Shown here piece by piece: positions 1-20,758 of a stretch of 24,834 nt of DNA (the first letter of the stretch is position 1; every line of letters begins with the position of its first letter). The stretch comes from a virus (Duplodnaviria; Heunggongvirae; Uroviricota; Caudoviricetes). The translations under genes and the position numbers were made by a program. The DNA is taken from positions 1 to 24,834 of IMG/VR virus record IMGVR_UViG_2563366939_000004; one strand, 5' to 3'. The notes below the pieces were generated by a model. The model had not been told where the DNA came from and searched no databases. It saw only the letters and a program-made list of their open reading frames with translations.

Positions 1-786
1 AGTGGTATCAGCCATATAAAGCTGCCCCGTTCCCTCACCGCAGCACTTCGGGCAATCCGGATTGGGTATGGCGTTATCAACAAAGCCGAGGCCTCCATAT
101 TCCGGCTCGGGTTTACCATCTCTGGAGGCCTGTGCCGCAGCCTTATCGAATTCTGCAATATCACGCCACTGGTAGAGATGATTCTCGCCCCAGCAATAAC
201 GGCAGTTAACACGGCGAAATTGTGCCAACTGATTGGGGTCGGCCTGGACAATGGCCATCAACTGGCTCACCAGTAAATCCAGGTCTGCGGTATAGCGTTT
301 CTGGTACTGATTGCGGAAGTAGCTGATAGCACGATAAACCCTGGCATTTCTAAGCATACGGCTGGCGTTGCTGTTAGCTGTCGCACCTTGCCCCTCATAA
401 CCAGCCAGTCGGTATGCCTCTGTCGGCTTTTTCCCCTGAGCAACCAACATGGCGAATTTTGCCTGCTGGTCAGAAATACCGAATTCATCGGGGCAGAACG
501 AAATTTCTTCCGTGTCCCCCTCAATCAGGAGTGCATCGGATACAGCCTTTTTTTTCTGAGATTTTCCGTTCTGCCTTTGCGCAGTCTGCGCAGTTTTTTT
601 TCGCGCACTTTTTTGCGCAGTTTTGCGCATTTCTTTCTGCGCATTTTTCGGAGTTTTTTTGATGTAACGACGGGCTGTTGCGTAGTTCAGTCCCCTTGCT
701 TCACACCATGCCACCGGAGATATACCGGAGCGGGTGTATTCAGCAATATACTCCTGCTGCAACGCCCCCCAGTCCGGTCTGCTCAT
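1..786 (-). CDS. Phage DNA-packaging protein, terminase-small-subunit-like (N-terminal HTH, Lys/Ala-rich linker, Cys-rich C-region); 5' part only, runs off window start
   Basis: Hand translation from ATG at 786 gives uninterrupted frame to position 1 (MSRPDWGALQQEYIAEYTRSGISPVAWCEARGLNYATARRYIKK...NCRYCWGENH...PDCPKCCGEG); not in ORF track because no stop in window. Position directly after lysis genes is where lambdoid packaging genes sit. Function assignment is inference. Confidence 0.4.
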   Translation of the reverse strand, partial: MSRPDWGALQQEYIAEYTRSGISPVAWCEARGLNYATARRYIKKTPKNAQKEMRKTAQKSARKKTAQTAQRQNGKSQKKKAVSDALLIEGDTEEISFCPDEFGISDQQAKFAMLVAQGKKPTEAYRLAGYEGQGATANSNASRMLRNARVYRAISYFRNQYQKRYTADLDLLVSQLMAIVQADPNQLAQFRRVNCRYCWGENHLYQWRDIAEFDKAAAQASRDGKPEPEYGGLGFVDNAIPNPDCPKCCGEGTGQLYMADTT

Positions 787-789
787 CAG

Positions 790-1041
790 TTAGTCCTGAT
801 TTTTATCCACCCTGAGTAGTTCGCGCAGAGCAAAGGCATCCCCTTTTCTGGCAAGCTTAAACAATGCCGCTCGTAACTCGGCTTCACCTTTCGCTCTGCC
901 CTTACGGATGGCCGCATAAAAATCTGTCATTGCTTCCCGATTTTCTTTCAGTCGGTTCAGATCAACATCCAGAACGTCAGCGATTTGTTGTGCAGTCATC
1001 CGGCACGCTGCCAGAGACTCGACTTTCGAATACGGAATCAT
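790..1041 (-). CDS. Small HTH-like phage protein, resembles K-12 Rac YnaK from memory; start uncertain (alternative ATG at 999)
   Basis: 83-aa ORF (MIPYSKVESLAACRMTAQQIADVLDVDLNRLKENREAM...), stop 4 nt before terS-like ATG; overlaps upstream gene by 65 nt if long start is used. Confidence 0.5.
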   Translation of the reverse strand: MIPYSKVESLAACRMTAQQIADVLDVDLNRLKENREAMTDFYAAIRKGRAKGEAELRAALFKLARKGDAFALRELLRVDKNQD

Positions 1042-1909
1042 TTGTCACCCCCATTGATATGCAGGGTGTCTTCTTCCTGTATTTTTCGTGAAGGATTTTT
1101 ACTGCAGCGTTGTTCCAGGTGACCTGATGGTGAATGCGTTTATGGCTGGCACCCATCAGTGAGATTTTTACGCACGACGGCGCATACATGACGGAGTAAA
1201 AACTTTTAACGTAGGTTCCGGAATCCAGATACAGCTCGGTCATTCCGCCGCTGTTTTTCTGCGTCTGTTTCTGCCCTAACTGGACAGCACCGATCGTCAT
1301 AAACAATTCACCACAGCGACCGAGATTCGTGTACGTATTCACATCCTCGTTAATGCGCCCCATGAATGAGAACGGTCGATCAACCGAACAGATAAAGCTG
1401 TTCATTGCCTTGCGTTTCACCCACGAAGCATGGCCGCCATTGTCACCAAGAAAATCCCCGCCCTGCGACATAGCGATGGAAAGCGCGGGTATTGATTCGT
1501 AATACGCCAGCATTTCAGAAAGGATCGCATCCAGTTTCCTTATCGGGAAATAGGCCTGGTCATAGTTGCGATCCACCCGAAACTGGAACTCGTGATAATC
1601 ATCATCGAACTGAATGAAGTATTTACACCCGACCAGTTTTGCCAGGTCGAAACAGGCATTACGGGCGTAAAAAATTGAGCGGCGGTCACCAAAATTATCG
1701 GCTTCGTCAAAACGACTGGCAATATCGGCTTTGGAAAATACCAGCACCTGTTCACCAAATTCAGCCATGTACTGATGCCGTGTCTTATCTTCATCATCAA
1801 CAACGATAAAAATTTTCCCGGTATAGCCAGCACGACGCAACGTCCGGTAAGTCAGAACTTTGTCCGGTCGCCCGTGAGTCAGAATAAAGGCGCAAAAATC
1901 ATCACGCAT
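977..1909 (-). CDS. Uncharacterised 310-aa protein; motifs suggest a GT-A-fold nucleotide-sugar transferase-like enzyme (IFIVVDDEDK ... FIQFDDDYHEF); no PP-loop, no TM segments
   Basis: ORF with GGAGG RBS 5 nt upstream of ATG; start overlaps stop of upstream ParB-like gene by 8 nt (ATGCGTGA) indicating translational coupling. Fold assignment is motif-based inference only. Confidence 0.6.
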   Translation of the reverse strand: MRDDFCAFILTHGRPDKVLTYRTLRRAGYTGKIFIVVDDEDKTRHQYMAEFGEQVLVFSKADIASRFDEADNFGDRRSIFYARNACFDLAKLVGCKYFIQFDDDYHEFQFRVDRNYDQAYFPIRKLDAILSEMLAYYESIPALSIAMSQGGDFLGDNGGHASWVKRKAMNSFICSVDRPFSFMGRINEDVNTYTNLGRCGELFMTIGAVQLGQKQTQKNSGGMTELYLDSGTYVKSFYSVMYAPSCVKISLMGASHKRIHHQVTWNNAAVKILHEKYRKKTPCISMGVTNDSVFESRVSGSVPDDCTTNR

Positions 1910-2690
1910 ATTCCTCCTCCCCGCTATGCATGATCGCCACCATGCGCTGCGTCATTCGGACAAATCCATTTTCAATAGCCTGCTGATAATCAATGATCAC
2001 CAGCGCCGACTCCTCGAAAAGGCACTGAATTTCAGCGGGGGCATGAGCGTAATAGTCCGCAATTCTGCTGAAATTAAACACCGTGTGACGTTCTGCCGCA
2101 CACAGGAGGAATTTCTCAATATCAGGATCAAGGGACGCCGAACGTATCCGGCTGATCAGCTCCTGAGTTTTCGTATCGTCGTACAGTTCACTGATATCCG
2201 GTTTACCGCCCGACGGCTCATAAACAGGCGTATCAATTTTCGTCGTATACGGCTCCTCCTTATTTCCTGTACCGGGCAAAACATCCGTCAACAGTTCATC
2301 AATTTCTGTCGGGCCGAAGCCTGTCAGGGAGACATCAAAATCAGCATTGATTAGGTCCGACAGCTCCATCCGCAATAGATCTTCATCCCAGCCAGCATTC
2401 ATCGGTAGGCGATTATCTGCCAGGCGGTACGCCTTTTTCTGCTCATCCGTCAGGCCAGACAGAACAATGACCGGAACAGAATCCATTTTGAGCATTTCAG
2501 CCGCCATAACACGACCGTGACCCGCAATAATTTCGCCCTTTTCGTCAATCAGCACCGGATTAGTCCAGCCGAATTGCTTAATACTTTCTACCAGTTGTGC
2601 CACCTGCTCAGTACTGTGCGTCCTGGCGTTGTGCGCATACGGTGACAATTCTTGTAATGGGCGATAGACTATCTTTAATTTCTCGCTCAT
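1902..2690 (-). CDS. ParB/Srx-like nuclease-domain protein (262 aa)
   Basis: N-terminal ParB-N-like region (KIVYRPLQELSPYAHNARTHS...VLIDEKGEIIAGHGRVMAA); acidic C-terminal half; first gene of a two-gene cassette. Confidence 0.65.
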   Translation of the reverse strand: MSEKLKIVYRPLQELSPYAHNARTHSTEQVAQLVESIKQFGWTNPVLIDEKGEIIAGHGRVMAAEMLKMDSVPVIVLSGLTDEQKKAYRLADNRLPMNAGWDEDLLRMELSDLINADFDVSLTGFGPTEIDELLTDVLPGTGNKEEPYTTKIDTPVYEPSGGKPDISELYDDTKTQELISRIRSASLDPDIEKFLLCAAERHTVFNFSRIADYYAHAPAEIQCLFEESALVIIDYQQAIENGFVRMTQRMVAIMHSGEEEYA

Positions 2691-2827
2691 ACAGCCTTGC
2701 TTTATGAATAAAACGCACCCCAGCAGCCAGTGCTACTGGGGGCGGAGGTGTTGCTGGTAAAGTTAGGTATTGGATCAATGAGTGAGTCAATATAATATTA
2801 AACTCACAATTATAAATCAGCCATATA

Positions 2828-4285
2828 TTAGGAGCGCCAAAAAAAACCTGAAAACAATATAATAACAGGATAAATTTCAAGGCGACCAAGAATCATAGCT
2901 ATGCACATTAAATATTTTGCAATGTCATTAAGCACTCCGAATGACGATGCAGTAGCCCCAAAACCTAATCCCATATTATTAATACATGCAGCCACTGTTG
3001 CAAATGATGTAAGAAAATCATATCCCATACCATTTAACACCAGTATAAAAAACACCGTGAAGAGAGTATAAAGAAAAAAGAAACTCCATACAGACCTCAT
3101 TACACGATCTGTAACTATCTTCCCTCCTACATTTACACTCAACAACGCTCTGGGATGAGAAAGCTGATTTATCTCGTGTTTGCTTTGTTTGAAAAGTATA
3201 AGAAATCGAAGTGACTTAATTCCACCACAAGTTGAACCTATACATCCCCCAAAGAAACTTGACAACAGCAAAAACACTATCGTGTGCGTGGGCCAGTTTG
3301 CATAATCCTGCGTAGCTAAACCATTATCAGTGAGCATGGAGCTGGCAAGAAAAAACGAATGAATAAAACTTCCATGCAAGTCATACATACCTATATGCCA
3401 GACCTGGAAAGAGGTAACAATGATCACCCCTAAGGCTATTAACAGAAAGAAACGAAGTTCAATATCTCTGATTAAAGGTTTTATCGTTTTCCTGCTAATA
3501 ACAATATACCAAAGAGTGAAGTTGAAAGCCGATAGCAGGGAAAAAGAACCAGCCACCAGCTCAACCAAATAGTTATTAAAATATCCGATACTCTCGCTAT
3601 GAGTTGAGAAACCACCAAGCGAAACTGTGGAAATCCCGTGACAAATAGCATCAAACAAAGGCATTCCTGCAAGTCTATAACAGACAATACAAGCAATACC
3701 TAATAAAGAATAAGTTATCCACAGTGTCCGTGACGTATCGGCCAGGCGGGGAGTGAGTTTGTCATCCTTAAATGGCCCCGGCATTTCTGACTGATAAAGC
3801 TTTGCACCACCAATACCCAATAATGGCAATACAGCAACCGCCAGAACAATAACTCCTAAACCACCTATAAAATTTAACTGTGACCGATAGTACAAATATG
3901 CCCGAGGTAATGAACTAACATCATCAATTACAGTTGCTCCTGTTGTTGTTATTCCAGAAACCCCTTCAAACAGAGCATCAATGAACGTTAAATTAAGTTC
4001 TGAGTCAATCCATAAAGGGAATGCACTAATAACAGAAAACAAAATCCAAAACATTACAATTATAATAAACCCATCACGGGTACGTAATTGAATGCCAGAT
4101 TTCTTAGTTGTATACCACGCTCCGCCACCAATGCAAAAAAATATAACGAAAGTTATAAAGAAAACGAACAGGCTTTTTTCTTTATAAAACAATGCTACAA
4201 CCATTGGTGGCAACATTGAAAGACTATAGAGCCAAACCAGGAACCCACACATATGAGTAACAACTCTTACATGAGATGTATTCAT
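2828..4285 (-). CDS. trkG: TrkG, Trk-system K+ uptake membrane protein (485 aa from ATG at 4285; ORF-track start is an upstream TTG)
   Basis: Polytopic membrane protein starting MNTSHVRVVTHMCGFLVWLYSL..., matches my recollection of the K-12 Rac-encoded TrkG; strongly AT-rich relative to flanking DNA. Confidence 0.85.
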   Translation of the reverse strand: MNTSHVRVVTHMCGFLVWLYSLSMLPPMVVALFYKEKSLFVFFITFVIFFCIGGGAWYTTKKSGIQLRTRDGFIIIVMFWILFSVISAFPLWIDSELNLTFIDALFEGVSGITTTGATVIDDVSSLPRAYLYYRSQLNFIGGLGVIVLAVAVLPLLGIGGAKLYQSEMPGPFKDDKLTPRLADTSRTLWITYSLLGIACIVCYRLAGMPLFDAICHGISTVSLGGFSTHSESIGYFNNYLVELVAGSFSLLSAFNFTLWYIVISRKTIKPLIRDIELRFFLLIALGVIIVTSFQVWHIGMYDLHGSFIHSFFLASSMLTDNGLATQDYANWPTHTIVFLLLSSFFGGCIGSTCGGIKSLRFLILFKQSKHEINQLSHPRALLSVNVGGKIVTDRVMRSVWSFFFLYTLFTVFFILVLNGMGYDFLTSFATVAACINNMGLGFGATASSFGVLNDIAKYLMCIAMILGRLEIYPVIILFSGFFWRS

Positions 4286-6371: not shown

Positions 6372-6446
<75 letters not shown>

Positions 6447-6449
6447 ATA

Positions 6450-6525
<76 letters not shown>

Positions 6526-8773: not shown

Positions 8774-8929
8774 TTACTCCTCAGGTTCGTAAGCTGTGAA
8801 GACAGCGACCTCCGTCTGGCCGGTTCGGATTCGTACCTCACAGAGGTCTTTCCTCGTTACCAGTGCCGTCACTATGACGGTTAAACAGATGACGATCAGG
8901 GCGATTAACATCGCCTTTTGCTGCTTCAT
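8774..8929 (-). CDS. Hok-family type I toxin (51 aa)
   Basis: Hand translation gives MKQQKAMLIALIVICLTVIVTALVTRKDLCEVRIRTGQTEVAVFTAYEPEE, a Hok/Gef family sequence; missed by ORF track because under 60 aa. Confidence 0.85.
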   Translation of the reverse strand: MKQQKAMLIALIVICLTVIVTALVTRKDLCEVRIRTGQTEVAVFTAYEPEE

Positions 8930-9451
8930 AGCCTGCTTCTCCTTGACCTTTCGGTCCGTAAGAGGCTAATCTCTATGTGTCGCATAGATATGGCCTCAGA
9001 TTAATGTTAAACGTCTTGCAGGACGCGTAATGTTAACTGGGGCTTTTCTCTATCTACCTTTGGTGTTCATGCCCGAGGCAGATAGCCTCAAGCACCCACA
9101 GCAATTCTAACTATCCAATACATCACTGCCAACACTTTAAACTCTTACCCTTTAAAACAAGAACAAAATTCAACCAATCAGCATTGGGCGTATACTCATA
9201 TCCTAGAGAAAACAACTCTTTCTGTACTATTTATATCCATATGATTTATAAGCATTTGCCACTTGCCATAGCCGCACAATGACAGTTTGCCATTTGATGT
9301 CAATAGATAAAAATGATCGTTTTCAATGAGTTACATACTTGCAAGGCGTTGCACATCAGGCCCGATTACGTCAGTATCAAAAGATTACAGATGGTGCATT
9401 ACTGCCACCTCGCCTTAATGTTCCAGAACTCTCCAACTTGAGGAATTTTCA

Positions 9452-10225
9452 ATGACATCCTTTCAATTATCTTTGATTTCTCGTGAAATTGACGGCGAAA
9501 TAATACATTTACGTGCCAAAGATGGTTACATAAACGCCACATCAATGTGTAGAACTGCGGGCAAACTGCTCTCTGATTACACTAGACTCAAAACTACTCA
9601 AGAGTTTTTTGACGAATTATCACGCGATATGGGAATTCCCATATCGGAGTTAATTCAATCATTTAAAGGTGGAAGACCTGAAAACCAAGGGACATGGGTG
9701 CATCCTGACATCGCTATTAATCTAGCGCAGTGGCTATCGCCCAAATTTGCAGTCCAGGTTTCAAGATGGGTTCGTGAATGGATGTCAGGGGAAAGAACTA
9801 CAGCAGAAATGCCTGTACATTTAAAACGGTACATGGTTAATCGTAGTAGAATTCCTCACACGCACTTTTCTATTCTTAATGAACTGACATTCAACTTGGT
9901 TGCACCTCTTGAACAAGCAGGGTACACACTCCCAGAAAAAATGGTTCCTGACATTTCACAAGGAAGAGTATTTTCACAATGGTTAAGAGATAATAGAAAC
10001 ATAGAACCCAAAACATTCCCTACCTATGACCATGAATATCCCGATGGTCGCGTATACCCTGCAAGGCTGTACCCAAATGAATATTTAGCAGATTTCAAAG
10101 AACATTTTAACAATATTTGGTTGCCGCAATATGCCCCGAAATACTTCGCTGACCGGGACAAAAAGGCTCTCGCCTTGATTGAAAAAATTATGCTACCTAA
10201 CCTCGATGGCAATGAACAGTTCTAA
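9452..10225 (+). CDS. KilA-N domain protein with uncharacterised C-terminal domain (257 aa)
   Basis: N-terminal KilA-N/APSES-like region (IDGEIIHLRAKDGYINATSMCRTAGK...WVHPDIAINLAQWLSPKFAVQVSRWV); GAGGA RBS; opposite strand to neighbours; AT-rich flanks. Confidence 0.65.
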   Translation: MTSFQLSLISREIDGEIIHLRAKDGYINATSMCRTAGKLLSDYTRLKTTQEFFDELSRDMGIPISELIQSFKGGRPENQGTWVHPDIAINLAQWLSPKFAVQVSRWVREWMSGERTTAEMPVHLKRYMVNRSRIPHTHFSILNELTFNLVAPLEQAGYTLPEKMVPDISQGRVFSQWLRDNRNIEPKTFPTYDHEYPDGRVYPARLYPNEYLADFKEHFNNIWLPQYAPKYFADRDKKALALIEKIMLPNLDGNEQF

Positions 10226-10398: not shown

Positions 10399-10848
10399 TC
10401 ACTTTATCCGGCAATTTGCAGCCGGTTTCGCTTTCTTCAGTTGACTAACCAATTGTTTAACCAGCATTGTCAATTCGCGAACTTGTTTCCCGGGCTCCCC
10501 TTTGCCCTGAAGCAGGGCAGCGCGGCAAGCGTTCCATCCCTCAGCATATGTTTCAGTTACACCATCGAGATGGCATGTAAGCAAATCCATTTCTTCCGGC
10601 ACTACGGGCGCTGGAAAAACGGCATAGGATGGCGTCCATTTTGGCGCTTTATCTCCAGCCGAACGCTGATACCAGTCATCCGGTTTGTATTCATAAAAAT
10701 CACCAACTGGCTCTGCTTCCAGAGATGCCAGAGCAATTTTGAATAATTCGCCCTCTACCCGTGCCATCCCTGAATTGGGGTGGCATTTCTCAATCGCTAT
10801 TTTTAATTTAGCTTCTTCGATTAATTGCTTTTTGGTTAATTCAGTCAT
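10399..10848 (-). CDS. Hypothetical phage protein (149 aa)
   Basis: ORF in early-region operon; no recognisable motif. Confidence 0.5.
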   Translation of the reverse strand: MTELTKKQLIEEAKLKIAIEKCHPNSGMARVEGELFKIALASLEAEPVGDFYEYKPDDWYQRSAGDKAPKWTPSYAVFPAPVVPEEMDLLTCHLDGVTETYAEGWNACRAALLQGKGEPGKQVRELTMLVKQLVSQLKKAKPAANCRIK

Positions 10849-11009
10849 TTTTCATTACCGCCCTTTCGGGCCGCCTCCTAATATTTTGAGGGTGCAGCCC
10901 CCCCCTCCGGTTAAGGATTAAATTTTATTTACAGTGCTAAATTTAATTATTCAGATTTGGATTATGATTTCTCTTTCAGTTCACGCAGTTCCCTGATTGT
11001 TAATTTGGC

Positions 11010-11447
11010 TCACAACAGCACATCCTGAAAATTACCCTGATAGAACGCCAGTACACGCTGTATGACTTCGCTCTTCCGGCACTCGCGACAGATTATATTC
11101 AGACGCCTGTCATAGCGGCGTATTTCTCCGTCTGGTAATGACCAGATAAGGTCCGGATCAACTACAGCAGGTTTCTTCACCTTTGCCCTCGATAGTTTTT
11201 TGCGGGCGTTTTGCCAGTCCTTACGAGCCTGTTCAGAGGGAAATAGCCCGTAGCCGGAGTTATATACATCGCCACTGGCAACCAGCTCTCTGGCGAGAAC
11301 GCTCATTAAATATCTTGTCGCACCTGTCTTAGCTTCAAGTTGTCGTAACGTCTCGCGCCCATTCTGGCGCACGAGTTCAACAACCTGCCCCTTAATTTTT
11401 TCCCGCTCTTCTTGTGTAAATACTTTTGCCATAAGCGCCTCCGGCAA
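11010..11447 (-). CDS. Hypothetical phage protein (145 aa), basic, CxxC pair near C-terminus
   Basis: ORF abutting stop of upstream gene. Confidence 0.5.
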   Translation of the reverse strand: MPEALMAKVFTQEEREKIKGQVVELVRQNGRETLRQLEAKTGATRYLMSVLARELVASGDVYNSGYGLFPSEQARKDWQNARKKLSRAKVKKPAVVDPDLIWSLPDGEIRRYDRRLNIICRECRKSEVIQRVLAFYQGNFQDVLL

Positions 11448-12209
11448 TCACTTTTCCGATACAACACAGCGGGAAGAATCAGTAATCTGGCGAACAATAT
11501 CCCGGTGCTTGTTCAACTCCCGCAGCGCGGCGCAGACACGCTCCCACTTCTGGACATGGCTTTTCGCCCGACGCAGTTCACGATTTGCTATATGCAGCGA
11601 TGGTAAAATCAGGTTATCCGCTTGCGTTTCAGTAAACGATGGCAACGACTGCACAATGTCCGCCACAGTTTCTGTTTTAATATCTTCCTGTGTTGCAGCT
11701 TCCAGTACTGGTAACGCAACACCGGCTGGCTGAGGAAAGGCTTTACCATCAGTTTCCGCTACCGATGCAGCTTTCGGCTCTGCTGGTAAATTATCGCCCG
11801 GCATGCAGTAACGAAATTTACCGTTCTGATTAACGCGAATCAGACGACCTTTACTGATTGCCATTGCCAGCGTTGAAGCCACTTTGCGTGATGTGATGCC
11901 GAAAAACGTAGCCAGTTCTTCCGCCGTTTGTGGGCCACGTTGTTCAATCGTCGCAGTTAAATCGCACTCCGAAATTTTTGCGACTGTTGCCGTGGTGGTT
12001 TCTTCCGGCAGTTCTGCCTGCTCTGGCTGTTCCTGCTGAACGTTGTTATCAGCCACGCGCCAGGTGTATACGCTTTTATCAACGAAGCCAGCCTTTTTCA
12101 GTTCCCACAGCTCGTTCAGCACTTCTTCACGACTGATATCAAGTCGCGCAGCCAGTTCTACCGACGTAGCTTTCCCCATTGCTTTCAGTGCGTCAAAAAC
12201 AGTCTCCAT
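11448..12209 (-). CDS. Hypothetical protein with two winged-helix-like DNA-binding segments (about 254 aa from ATG at 12209; longer start at 12260 possible)
   Basis: Repeated HTH-like segments ([30 protein letters not shown] and [31 protein letters not shown]); GGAG upstream of 12209. Confidence 0.5.
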
Positions 12210-12231
12210 TAAATTTTTCTCCCGGTAAAAA

Positions 12232-12978
12232 TTACTTCGCAATTCCTGGCTGGACGACATTCGGACGCCAGCTCTCCCAGTTAAAATTCACCCATCGCCC
12301 GCCGTTCATGGTCATGCGATCCATAATCCGCTCGCCGAGCAATGTTTTCATGGCCCCATAGTTCAGGTTTGTCAGCATCCCCACGCTGCGCATCGACGCT
12401 GTCCGGCGATCAACAATCTGGTGCAGTACCACCTGCTCGTTTTTCGTCTCGCGCTGAATGCCAATTTCATCAAGAACCAGCAGATCCACTTCGCACAGTT
12501 CCCGCAAAAATTTTTCGCCTGATTTCCCGTCGTCATAGCTGGCGTGTAGAGCACTCATGACATCAGCCACGGTAACCACAATCACTGTCTGGCCATCTTT
12601 CAGCAGGCGATTCCCGATTGCCGCCGCCAGATGGTTTTTTCCGGTACCAGGTTTTCCGCTGAACGCAAAATTTGTACACCCGGTCATCAGTTCATCAGCG
12701 ATAGATTTCGCCTGGCTCAACGCGTATCGCTGGCCGTCGTTCTGCACCAGGTAATTCGCAAACGAGCATTTGCGGTGCAACGGCTGGATGCCGGAGCGAT
12801 TCAGGATTTTTTCCACCCGCAACTGACGATTCTGACGGTTGATCTCCTCACAACGTTTCTGGCCTTCTGCAAGTTGCCACTCGCGCCACTCAGCCACCGT
12901 CCTGAATGGGGCGGTTACATGTGGCGGGGCCAGTCTGCGGATACGTTCAAGAATGCCGCCTGCCGCAATATTTTTCAT
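12232..12978 (-). CDS. ydaV: DnaC/IstB-like AAA+ replication protein (helicase loader, lambda P analogue)
   Basis: Walker [16 protein letters not shown] and Walker B LLVLDEIG; 248 aa as recalled for K-12 YdaV. Confidence 0.8.
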
Positions 12979-12984
12979 GGTCAG

Positions 12985-13842
12985 TTACCCCCTGAAGCCT
13001 GGCGGGATCGCACTATCCGGTAACGAGACGGTGTTAACCTGTCGGAGTAACGTCTCAGGTCGAACACCTTTTGGCGCGAACAAGCCCTGGTATTCATTGG
13101 CGATGCTGTGTCGAATCACCTGCTCAGGTGAAAAACCCTGCTGGCGGAATTTTTCCAGCTCCCGTATCGCCCCGTTAGCGCCCTGCTCCGTTCGAATCGG
13201 TTTACGCAATGCCTGGCGAAATTCAACCCACTCACGCCAAAGCGAGACAGAAATCCAGTTCGGCAAAGCAATATCCAGAGGGTCAAACTTTTTAACACCT
13301 CGATTCCCCCGGGGGGGATTTAGGGGGGGATCTGTTTTTAGATCTTTATCTGTATCTTTATTAGTTGCCTTTGTGTTGACATCGTGTTCAAACACCACTT
13401 CAACATCTGTTTGAACACCTGTTAAATTTCTCTCTTGTTTTGTTTGAACATCTGCTTCCTTTCTGCTTCTTCTGGCCTGAACCGATGCTTTTCCTGCGGC
13501 TGATTTTTTGGTTAATTTTTCCCTGACTGATGCCAGATCTTCCTCAATCCGAAGATGCACCCATTCCTCGCCGTTATCACAAAAAAACTCCCGCAAGGAT
13601 GGTTCAACATCAGCCCATCGCTCGTTAGTCAGGCGGGCAATTTTTGCCAGCCTGTTTTTGGGTATTGGCTTTCCTGTTTGCCAGTAATTGAACATCAGCA
13701 ACAAATACGCACCGTGCTCCTCTGCTGACAAATGCATGGTGTCAGCCAGGTAATCAGCTATGTACAGTTGCATGTATGGTAATGCGGCCATAATTGCCCC
13801 GTATGATGCTGCCCGGTTGCTTAGAATAAGCACAAACAGCAT
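12985..13842 (-). CDS. ydaU: Replication initiation-type protein (lambda O analogue position), YdaU-like
   Basis: 285-aa ORF upstream of DnaC-like gene; length and synteny match recalled K-12 YdaU. Confidence 0.7.
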   Translation of the reverse strand: MLFVLILSNRAASYGAIMAALPYMQLYIADYLADTMHLSAEEHGAYLLLMFNYWQTGKPIPKNRLAKIARLTNERWADVEPSLREFFCDNGEEWVHLRIEEDLASVREKLTKKSAAGKASVQARRSRKEADVQTKQERNLTGVQTDVEVVFEHDVNTKATNKDTDKDLKTDPPLNPPRGNRGVKKFDPLDIALPNWISVSLWREWVEFRQALRKPIRTEQGANGAIRELEKFRQQGFSPEQVIRHSIANEYQGLFAPKGVRPETLLRQVNTVSLPDSAIPPGFRG

Positions 13843-14607: not shown

Positions 14608-15027
14608 ATGGTTCATGAAGATAAAGCGCGTAAAGAGTTCGCCAGTAGGCTTGCGCTAGCCTGTGAAAACGCTGGTTATGAACAACATGGAAGGCAGGCA
14701 GAAATTGCCCGTCGAATGAAATTAACACCAAAAGCGGTTAGCAAATGGTTTAATGGCGAAACAATTCCTCGCCGAGAGAAATTAAGGGAATTAGCAACAC
14801 TCATTGGAACAACACCAACCTATCTTTTGGGAGAGGATACAGAAGAAAGTGGACAGGTACGTTTCTATCAGGAGTTAAATCCAAGACAAAAAATCATCAT
14901 TGACCTTCTGGACGAGCTCCCTGACAGTGAGACAGATGAACTTTTAAAAACTCTTGAGGAGAAAAAACAGAAGTACAATGCAATTTACGAAGAGTTAGCA
15001 CGAAAGAAAAAACAAAAAGCCTCTTAA
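14608..15027 (+). CDS. racR: RacR prophage repressor (HTH, XRE-like)
   Basis: 139-aa ORF with HTH (MKLTPKAVSKWFNGETIP); first in-frame ATG; in-frame stop at 14551 limits N-terminal extension. Confidence 0.8.
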   Translation: MVHEDKARKEFASRLALACENAGYEQHGRQAEIARRMKLTPKAVSKWFNGETIPRREKLRELATLIGTTPTYLLGEDTEESGQVRFYQELNPRQKIIIDLLDELPDSETDELLKTLEEKKQKYNAIYEELARKKKQKAS

Positions 15028-15094: not shown

Positions 15095-15150
15095 CACACA
15101 AAATGTACTTAAAGTACTTTACAACAATGAACACAAAGTACATTATATAC
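15095..15150. promoter_or_regulatory. Second operator-like cluster downstream of racR (OL/PL-like) including 10-bp palindrome AAAGTACTTT
   Basis: ATGTACT, AAAGTACTTT, AAGTACAT motifs sharing the core seen in the racR-ydaS intergenic region. Confidence 0.45.
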
Positions 15151-15315
15151 CTACCAACCCCCCCCCGCCCCACAGAACGCAGGGCAATACTTCGAGTTAC
15201 CAGGCAGTGGTCAGGGGTTAAGTAGCCAGCCCGAGGCGTATGAACATGACGGCGGGATTCAAATTTTGCAGTGCAGCAGTTAGTTCCGCCACCCGGCGTT
15301 AAGGGGAGAGATAAG

Positions 15316-20382: not shown

Positions 20383-20577
20383 ATGAGATATGACAATGTT
20401 AAACCATGTCCATTTTGTGGTTGTCCATCAGTAACGGTGAAAGCCATTTCAGGATATTACCGAGCGAAGTGTAACGGATGCGAATCCCGAACCGGTTATG
20501 GTGGAAGTGAAAAAGAAGCACTCGAAAGATGGAATAAACGAACCACTGGAAATAATAATGGAGGTGTTCATGTATAA
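20383..20577 (+). CDS. ralR: RalR (Lar), restriction-alleviation protein / type I TA toxin
   Basis: 64 aa MRYDNVKPCPFCGCPSVTVKAISGYYRAKCNGCESRTGYGG... Confidence 0.85.
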   Translation: MRYDNVKPCPFCGCPSVTVKAISGYYRAKCNGCESRTGYGGSEKEALERWNKRTTGNNNGGVHV

Positions 20578-20758
20578 AATTACCGCCACTATTGAAAAGG
20601 AAGGTGGCACTCCTACTAACTGGACAAGATATTCAAAATCTAAACTAACGAAATCAGAATGCGAAAAAATGCTCTCAGGTAAAAAAGAAGCAGCCGTTTC
20701 CAGAGAGCAGAAAGTAAAACTGATAAATTTTAATTGCGAGAGACTTCAGTCCTCGTGA
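20570..20758 (+). CDS. rcbA: YdaC/RcbA small protein (62 aa from ATG 20570)
   Basis: GGAGGTG RBS; start overlaps ralR stop; synteny between ralR and xisR. Confidence 0.6.
   Translation: MYKITATIEKEGGTPTNWTRYSKSKLTKSECEKMLSGKKEAAVSREQKVKLINFNCERLQSS

Follow-up and report, generated by a model that had tools for sequence, protein, structure and literature searches.

Do the homopolymeric G/C tracts of a lambdoid prophage act as programmed switches, or are they merely places where mutations readily occur? A sequence-only reading of the locus had proposed the former possibility for a C8 run and for a palindrome plus a G7 run inside ydaU, suggesting that such slippage-prone tracts could produce phase-variable expression or a frameshifted replication protein. 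According to the analysis presented here, the three tracts, which belong to a Rac-type lambdoid prophage, are probably mononucleotide runs of the ordinary, mutation-prone kind and not a programmed switch.

The window, i.e., the whole stretch of 24,834 nucleotides (24.8 kb) that was analysed, is a Rac-like lambdoid prophage as judged from its sequence, and the presence of the RalA sRNA confirms a Rac-type element. Its early-right operon lies on the minus strand and comprises a cro-like gene, ydaT, ydaU, ydaV, the DUF1627 and DUF977 genes and a gene for a 149-aa protein. Pfam/PHROG matches named the same-orientation genes cro-like, YdaT, YdaU (DUF1376), DnaC-like YdaV, DUF1627 and DUF977. On the DNA level ydaU of the window is 98.6% identical to ydaU of K-12, and the protein that it encodes is identical to P0001. 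The tracts and the genes to which they belong are as follows.

10399–10848, minus strand: 149-aa gene (phrog_660, function unassigned), ATG at 10848, C8 tract upstream
10898–10905, minus strand: C8 on the plus strand, G8 in the minus-strand transcript (direct reading and run scan)
12985–13842, minus strand: ydaU, replication initiator-like, 285 aa (Pfam and PHROG matches)
13306–13317, minus strand: ydaU tract 2 with the adjoining G5 run, C5G7 on the plus strand and C7G5 on the coding strand, codons P176, P177, R178 and G179
13323–13329, minus strand: ydaU tract 1, G7 on the plus strand and C7 on the coding strand, codons P172 and P173 and first base of L174
13308–13331, minus strand: two 12-bp direct-repeat units, ATCCCCCCCTAA and ATCCCCCCCGGG on the coding strand

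The C8 run was found where it had been placed, 50–57 nt upstream of the ATG of the 149-aa ORF. In ydaU, the plus strand reads C5 (13306–13310), G7 (13311–13317), ATTTA (13318–13322) and G7 (13323–13329), and codons D171 to G179 read GAT CCC CCC CTA AAT CCC CCC CGG GGG on the coding strand. The previously described peptide PPLNPPRG and palindrome were hence recovered, although the palindrome, CCCCCGGGGGGG, is imperfect with arms of 5 bp and the block ends at 13329 and not at 13330. The two G7 runs are not independent of each other, as both are copies of the 12-bp direct repeat (ATCCCCCCC+3 on the coding strand). The enrichment of G/C runs over chance is modest: four runs of at least 7 bases were observed in the 24.8 kb, for which a first-order Markov model predicts 1.34 (P ~0.055), and two of at least 8 bases, for which it predicts 0.30 (P ~0.04). 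The fourth run, which the sequence-only reading did not include, is a C9 at 15158–15166.

The C8 tract had been assigned to a promoter region. No sigma-70-like −35/−10 pair (at least 8/12 matches) spanning it could be found on either strand by a scan tool or a relaxed hexamer scan. As the scan tool also missed the expected early-right promoter, its sensitivity is limited. A terminator scan yielded nothing at the C8 tract, and Rfam searches of the whole window at gathering scores and of the intergenic region at E <= 10 yielded no family at either tract region. Instead of a recognisable promoter, the tract occupies a conserved leader within the polycistronic operon.

10850–10956, minus strand: leader/junction module of ~110 nt between the DUF977 (ren-like) gene and the first nin-side gene
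10888–10907, minus strand: leader hairpin 1, plus-strand arms GAGGG (10888–10892) and CCCTC (10903–10907), RNA GAGGG-loop-CCCUC

More than 1,400 E. coli genomes contain this ~110-nt module with 85–90% identity, and it precedes many different genes in them. According to folding predictions the C8 tract lies in the loop and the 5′ arm of hairpin 1. The arms of this hairpin are identical in four of five aligned sequences (one relative has CCATC), and the loops differ. Further downstream in the leader, a Shine-Dalgarno sequence (SD; AGGAGG, 10879–10874) is followed by hairpin 2 (CGGCCC-GAAA-GGGCGG, 10873–10858) and the AUG at 10848.

Across relatives the C8 tract is not kept. Three relatives aligned to the window exhibit GCAG-AAATCCC, GAATCCC and AAATCCA-TCCGG at the same site, and all 115 further viral contigs with shared flanks contain AAATCCC (70), GAATCCC (34), AAATCCA (6) or AATCCC (5). 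Where a poly-C tract is present, its length is not invariant: C7, C8 and C9 were found in six, six and one of the viral contigs, respectively, and one, three and one times in metagenomes, with the C9 metagenome contig having a coverage of ~1. Complete genomes included eight exact C7, ten exact C9 and ~85 C8 records as well as two further records of C9 length with one mismatch each, and three induced phage genomes carry C8. More than one poly-C length occurs within each of three flank haplotypes. The claim that the tracts are slippage-prone is thereby upheld, as all of them vary in length among isolates. In the leader, tract length varies over C7/C8/C9 as widely and recurrently as that of a contingency tract would, the effect on expression being a predicted one.

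This prediction was derived from folding of the leader with G6 to G10 and with the ancestral loops, for which differences were negligible; the predicted unpaired probability of the ribosome-binding site stays at 0.32–0.38 across G6–G10. Tract length is thus predicted to have almost no effect on access to this site. In the preferred reading, the leader run would be a G8 in the early-right polycistronic transcript. Poly-G would be a derived state of certain lineages, having taken the place of AUUU or AUUC in the loop of a conserved hairpin ahead of the ribosome-binding site of the first nin-side gene. Through replication slippage the run would vary from 7 to 9 bases, expression being affected little or not at all, and we infer that these changes in tract length are neutral.

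The runs in ydaU have a coding context. YdaU consists of an N-terminal DUF1376 domain (residues 22–104), a disordered linker (~141–187) and a conserved C-terminal domain, which was found in 2,742 representative proteins (E-value <= 0.001). In the AF2 model, residues 141–180 are coil with a pLDDT of 44–57, and the C-terminal domain reaches 87–98. A Foldseek search against the PDB yielded weak winged-helix (MarR-like) and DnaD-model matches only, all with E > 0.08. The C7 runs encode, as four CCC codons, the prolines of a PPxxPP[KR]G motif (codons 172–179, PPLNPPRG). Among 150 representatives at 50% identity, proline is the commonest residue at positions 172 (43/76), 173 (56/81), 176 (66/91) and 177 (60/95). 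Relatives with a different N-terminal domain keep D-L-P-L-N-P-P-R, which they encode as CTCCCCC TAAAT CCCCCTC, i.e., with interrupted runs. According to the preferred explanation, a Pro-Pro unit encoded by CCC-CCC would have been duplicated to give the runs, and the resulting motif would form the start of the initiator's C-terminal module. This module would travel with a particular type of helicase loader, and the motif would lie in the unstructured linker exactly where lambdoid replication modules are swapped.

The choice of codons is less easily explained by the peptide. All four motif prolines are encoded by CCC, compared to 15% of proline codons elsewhere in the window (P ~5e-4 with independent codons; ~0.02 if the two units are copies), and this anomalous usage suggests that a cause on the DNA level, beyond the peptide, may favour the C runs. 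Such a cause could be an origin of replication, for which the neighbouring DNA contains candidate elements.

13330–13373, no strand assigned: AT-rich stretch (30–35% GC at 13320–13379) with two GATC sites and 3.3 copies of ATCTTT
13372–13452, no strand assigned: five copies of the iteron-like repeats GRTGTTCAAACA / TGTTTGAACA, candidate origin-binding sites

Of nine repeat matches with at most two mismatches in the whole window, six fall in ydaU. When up to three mismatches are allowed the whole-window count is not above chance, so that it is the clustering of close matches that stands out. Judged by the sequence, the iterons and the AT-rich region in ydaU are probably the phage origin. Rac has an active oriJ according to the literature, with the support for the ydaU site being indirect: primers named ‘oriJ’ and used for qPCR (PMC3945230) map to 12567–12721 in ydaV, ~0.6 kb from the ydaU block, which means that published work puts the Rac origin in this neighbourhood. 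In the accessible papers, the literature on oriJ offered these qPCR primers only and no sequence-level origin map.

A similar arrangement is found in YdaU's counterpart in phage lambda. The lambda origin sits inside the O gene and consists of iterons, an AT-rich region and a flanking palindrome. O and YdaU each consist of an exchangeable DNA-binding module at the N-terminus and a module of a given loader type at the C-terminus, and in both genes repeats and an AT-rich stretch lie in linker-coding DNA in which mosaic junctions occur. Unlike O, YdaU contains a DUF1376 N-terminal domain, its repeats are ~12 bp long (TGTTCAAACA type) and its partner is the DnaC-like YdaV and not lambda P; moreover, the ydaU origin is a putative one. 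Mosaic breakpoints were found at ~13346–13349 within the AT-rich stretch, into which an IS3 insertion also falls, and mosaic variants exchange either half of YdaU. The ydaU tracts hence lie at a mosaic junction, adjoining the iteron-like cluster and the AT-rich stretch.

It could therefore be argued that the G/C block is itself a DNA element of the origin, for instance a GC-rich boundary or palindrome flanking the unwinding region as in the lambda origin, with the C runs being kept for a reason on the DNA level and the proline codons being secondary. The order of iteron-like cluster, AT-rich stretch with GATC sites and C7-TAAAT-C7-G5 block, the anomalous CCC usage, the C-rich version kept in relatives with another N-terminal domain and the proximity of the ‘oriJ’ primers would all fit. 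However, accessible literature maps no origin to the block, which folded as single-strand DNA (C5G7) no better than shuffled sequence (z = −0.06). In mosaic variants the C-run block moves with the C-terminal, loader-type module and not with the N-terminal domain and the iterons, and its peptide is conserved in distant homologues. Pseudogene alleles of ydaU are uninformative on origin function. Altogether we regard this reading as rather unlikely.

The fate of the runs among isolates bears on whether they switch ydaU. In the following, alleles are named by the lengths of tract 1/tract 2, with 7/7 being intact. Among viral contigs, 70 of 73 contained 7/7 with an intact G5 run, one was 6/7 and two had a base substitution in the G5 run. 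Out of 718 complete genomes with the region, the best 60 included four exact 6/7 alleles, with the other 56 being one base longer, as expected for 7/7. A protein search returned near-identical full-length proteins only, and frameshift alleles were counted by exact look-up of the predicted products. The tail of the +1 product is GESRC* on the DNA haplotype of the window and GESRCQKV on the K-12-like haplotype, for which exact products were found in the following numbers of contigs.

Tract 1, −1: 343 contigs
Tract 1, +1: 72 contigs
Tract 2, −1: 114 contigs
Tract 2, +1: 189 contigs
G5, −1: 2 contigs
G5, +1: 1 contig

For comparison, intact YdaU was present in 10,058 index blocks and the commonest frameshift allele in 410. 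Frameshifts in the replication gene, as had been envisaged, do occur: ±1 alleles exist for either C7 run and frameshifted ydaU pseudogenes have been annotated. Loss of one base in tract 1 leads to an immediate TAA stop and a 173-aa product. Strain 95-3192 carries an extra 11-bp unit (three units, 6/7/7) and is annotated as ‘frameshifted; internal stop’. Both ±1 alleles and a duplication of the 11-bp unit are recurrent, almost always at the expense of the frame. Off alleles with a secondary change (6/6; 6/7/7) remain frameshifted, and a single contig contained an in-frame compensated 8/6 allele.

These observations fit with mononucleotide runs being known indel hot spots in E. coli, whose genome has few G·C runs of 7 or 8 bp and in which such runs readily gain or lose one base (PMC8510543). 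Similarly, the C7 runs of ydaU account for hundreds of variant contigs and the adjacent G5 run for three, with the difference that the evidence here is population polymorphism of a prophage and not measured rates. In functional phages the reading frame of ydaU would be kept by selection, and frameshifted null alleles, created by slippage (mostly ±1) or by duplication of a unit, would persist as pseudogenes in cryptic prophages.

True slipped-strand phase variation, in which the leader G-run would tune or switch expression of the 149-aa nin-side gene and the C-runs of ydaU would switch the initiator and thereby prophage replication, is unlikely. The tracts do resemble the poly-G/C contingency loci of Neisseria, Haemophilus, Campylobacter and Helicobacter in that run length differs between close isolates, here on several haplotypes, and in that ±1 in a coding run destroys the frame, for tract 1 even by an immediate stop codon; the compensated 8/6 allele would also fit. 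Unlike in these loci, the intergenic run lies outside any recognisable promoter spacer, and the coding runs are located mid-gene (codons 172–178 of 285, in the linker) in a prophage replication gene and not at the 5′ end of a surface or restriction-modification gene. A single length prevails by far, off alleles gain further changes that do not restore the frame, relatives encode the peptide without the runs in DNA that is not slippery, and predicted RNA access of the leader is flat from G6 to G10. Contingency tracts are also usually longer than the runs described here, and E. coli is proficient in mismatch repair. Comparisons of alleles among isolates gave no sign of reversible switching. Phase variation is not demonstrated, and the length variants are attributed to hot-spot mutation and pseudogene decay.

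That the length variation is mostly a sequencing or assembly artefact at homopolymers, with tracts being effectively stable in nature, appears more doubtful still. Frameshift alleles at NCBI often come from NCTC3000 or other PacBio assemblies, the longest contig is below 5 kb in 50% of the index blocks of the 6/7 allele compared to 21% for the intact allele, and the C9 metagenome contig has, as mentioned above, a coverage of ~1. Homopolymer errors of long-read or low-coverage assemblies do contribute some fraction of the length variants. Yet, related but separately assembled strains share alleles (C7 in three ST2747 records; C9 in the strain pairs KN12-1/KN13-4 and GN02461/GN06156), hundreds of short-read assemblies contain 6/7, and duplication of an 11-bp unit is atypical of homopolymer error. 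Furthermore, a ydaU frameshift at codon 178, within tract 2 and the G5 run, has been reported for the laboratory-evolved K-12 line BM28 (PMC10044804).

It is highly improbable that the tracts are functional rheostats. In such a scenario, ribosomal or transcriptional slippage might be favoured by the first C7 run and the C7G5 palindrome 5 nt behind it, and intact ydaU would then by analogy to dnaX also yield a truncated, origin-binding fragment of 173–186 aa that modulates initiation. In the leader, how strongly the nin-side gene is translated might depend on the G7–9 run present in each lineage. Folding of the mRNA around the ydaU runs (z = −1.9) gave no convincing frameshift stimulator.

With hot-spot mutation as the preferred reading, ydaU is a decay site of Rac-type prophages, in which the initiator has been inactivated time and again through its two C7 runs of proline codons, and this can help to explain why many of these prophages are replication-dead. 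For annotators it follows that ‘frameshifts’ in ydaU and length differences in the leader should be taken as hot-spot mutations or homopolymer sequencing errors. No new regulatory principle is revealed. As a by-product, the analysis points to a candidate origin, and to a leader module found in many genomes, at lambdoid mosaic junctions.

This leader module has a peculiarity of its own, which concerns the surroundings of the tract and not the tract itself. Its SD is located ~25 nt from the AUG, with the gap being filled by the GC-rich GAAA-loop hairpin. In genes 38 and 25 of phage T4 the ribosome-binding site is split, and SD and AUG are brought together by a hairpin. The layout of SD, hairpin 2 and AUG in the leader appears, from its sequence, to resemble these split sites. 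In the variants examined, 6–9 nt are left between hairpin 2 and the AUG.

The element is a Rac-type lambdoid prophage, whose early-right operon, from the cro-like gene to the 149-aa gene, lies entirely on the minus strand and diverges from the repressor gene (14608-15027). The ydaU ORF shares 98.6% DNA identity with K-12 ydaU and at most 99.2% with other E. coli, and the sequence of its protein is that of a cluster present on at least 1,000 contigs.

Early-right operon (ORF listing and Pfam/PHROG)
14600-14274, minus strand, cro-like
14277-13855, minus strand, YdaT / cII-like
13842-12985, minus strand, YdaU (DUF1376; 'primosomal / O-like')
12978-12232, minus strand, YdaV (DnaC-like loader)
12260-11448, minus strand, DUF1627
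11447-11010, minus strand, DUF977 (ren-like)
11009-10849, intergenic gap of 161 nt
10848-10399, minus strand, 149-aa gene (phrog_660)

The RNA genes found with Rfam in the window, a sok antitoxin RNA (hok/sok-type module; 8927-9097, minus), the RalA antitoxin sRNA (20576-20754, minus) and two tRNA genes (6375-6525, minus), lie outside the tract regions. A KilA-N domain gene (9452-10225, plus), convergent with the 149-aa gene, matches a PHROG family annotated as BstA abortive-infection system (E = 5e-89).

The tracts noticed in the sequence-only reading are all present, with C8 at 10898-10905 and C5, G7, ATTTA, G7 at 13306-13329 inside ydaU. There the coding strand does encode PPLNPPRG, D171-G179 being specified by GAT, CCC, CCC, CTA, AAT, CCC, CCC, CGG and GGG. 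Four G/C runs in the window have a length of at least 7, where 1.3 would be expected (P about 0.055), and two a length of at least 8, where 0.3 would be (P about 0.04). As the two C7 runs of ydaU are copies of a single 12-bp unit, they count as one event. The fourth run, C9 at 15158-15166 (plus), adjoins repeated AAGTAC operator-like motifs and starts 12 nt past a promoter-like TTTACA-17-CATTAT (15118-15146), which would place it in the leader of an early-left transcript. Relatives, including K-12, carry an interrupted CCCACCCC here, so that the pure C9 is lineage-specific, as for C8.

The intergenic C8 run had been taken for slippage-prone, and among isolates C7, C8 and C9 all occur.

Length of the intergenic poly-C run
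Viral contigs: C7 6, C8 6, C9 1
Metagenomes: C7 1, C8 3, C9 1
Complete genomes: C7 8 exact, C8 about 85, C9 10 exact and a further 2 that are equally long but have one mismatch
Induced phage genomes: C7 0, C8 3, C9 0

Each of three flank haplotypes includes more than one length, which indicates recurrent changes, and related strains have the same allele (three ST2747 records; KN12-1/KN13-4), which speaks against pure assembly noise. The proposed location in a promoter region found no support, as no -35/-10 pair spans the run and the sole weak candidate would place it at about +34 to +41 of a leader. The whole leader region (301-bp query) was found in 112 genomes only. Its central ~110 nt (10850-10956), where the replication genes adjoin the nin side, recur at 85-90% identity in over 1,400 E. 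coli genomes, with differing downstream genes (DUF7167, DUF4406, others). Alignment and pattern harvest gave the following order on the transcribed strand, ending 6-9 nt before the AUG:

Hairpin 1, GAGGG-loop-CCCUC
SD, AGGAGG, between the hairpins
Hairpin 2, CCGCCC-GAAA-GGGCGG, GC-rich with a GAAA loop

This conserved leader, which matched no Rfam family, may represent a split ribosome-binding site; from SD to AUG are ~25 nt, with hairpin 2 in between. C8 occupies the loop of hairpin 1. The loops among 115 relative viral contigs listed are interrupted (AAATCCC 70, GAATCCC 34, AAATCCA 6, AATCCC 5), so that the pure C run is a derived minority state. As predicted SD accessibility shifts only from 0.32 to 0.38 across G6-G10 folds, C8 is probably a hypervariable, near-neutral run.

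In ydaU, ±1 alleles exist beside the predominant 7/7 (C-run lengths of tract 1, G7 at 13323-13329, and tract 2, G7 at 13311-13317). Viral contigs carried 7/7 in 70 of 73 cases, 6/7 in one and a G5 substitution in two. The region is present in 718 complete genomes; among the best 60 of these, four had exact 6/7, and the remaining 56 had one base more, the length that 7/7 would give. Strain 95-3192 contains a third, 11-bp unit, and its ydaU is annotated as frameshifted. The anticipated frameshifted replication protein is found on hundreds of contigs of the K-12-like haplotype, with the caveats that NCBI carriers are often PacBio NCTC assemblies and that 6/7 is enriched among short contigs.

Contigs with predicted ydaU products (exact look-ups, K-12-like haplotype)
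Tract 1: -1, 343; +1, 72
Tract 2: -1, 114; +1, 189
G5: -1, 2; +1, 1
In-frame 8/6: 1

The tract 1 -1 allele occurs in two further haplotypes, and DNA at seven sampled sites of the 173-aa product was 6/7 in five and 6/6 in two. In a published heat-evolved K-12 line, ydaU (285 codons) is frameshifted at codon 178 (PMC10044804), the end of tract 2. For the K-12-like haplotype, index blocks numbered 10,058 for the intact protein versus 410 for the commonest frameshift allele. This allele pattern does not look like an ON/OFF equilibrium.

DUF1376 covers YdaU residues 22-104 (Pfam), and the C-terminal 125 residues have 2,742 representative protein matches (E-value ≤0.001). An AF2 model, made with 76 sequences, has a folded N-part, coil at residues 141-180 (pLDDT 44-57) and a C-domain at pLDDT 87-98, which places PPLNPPRG within a linker. 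Mosaic relatives set the module boundary, by which the C runs open the C-terminal module: one keeps the N-domain and repeats, followed by another C-domain and a lambda-P-type gene, without the runs, and two variants join another N-domain to the same C-domain and YdaV, encoding D-L-P-L-N-P-P-R as CTCCCCC TAAAT CCCCCTC. In E. coli 2014C-3057 an IS3-family element sits at the ~13350 equivalent, exactly the AT-rich mosaic junction, and truncates ydaU. Among the 150 best representatives, positions 172, 173, 176 and 177 most often hold Pro and position 179 most often G. By these comparisons the conserved feature is the peptide, the uninterrupted run being peculiar to the Rac ydaU lineage. Some database YdaU proteins (286-295 aa) end in ...GFRGN rather than ...GFRG, a sign of changes around the stop codon in AGGGGGTAA (12985-12993); the G5 run there had length 5 in 80 of 80 loci checked.

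It is very improbable that programmed slippage yields a truncated initiator or that a run serves as a translational rheostat. Of the proposed phase variation, the length polymorphism stands; tract location and conservation do not fit, and it is in these two that the tracts differ from slipped-strand contingency loci, with which they share polymorphism. The tracts are best classed as hot spots at mononucleotide runs of a prophage, a further example of a familiar kind with little general interest. The leader run would simply drift in length. The two proline-codon runs would knock out the replication initiator again and again: slippage that depends on run length, much commoner at C7 than at G5, would give rise to null alleles, and these could persist in cryptic prophages.

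The lambda origin is located inside the O gene, and ydaU has a similar layout of repeats and an AT-rich stretch. Five iteron-like copies of GRTGTTCAAACA / TGTTTGAACA lie at 13372-13452, upstream of the C runs in gene orientation; six of nine close repeat matches in the window fall within ydaU. They are followed by 13330-13373, where GC is 30-35%, GATC occurs twice and ATCTTT is present in 3.3 copies. A candidate Rac-type origin at this place is plausible from such motifs, and leaves the verdict on the C runs unchanged. The single-strand fold of the C block is unremarkable; the motif prolines use CCC in 4/4 cases versus 15% of Pro codons elsewhere, a usage that would allow for the block acting at the DNA level. 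An active origin, oriJ, has been reported for Rac, and the published 'oriJ' qPCR primers (PMC3945230) map to 12567-12721 in ydaV, 0.6 kb off.
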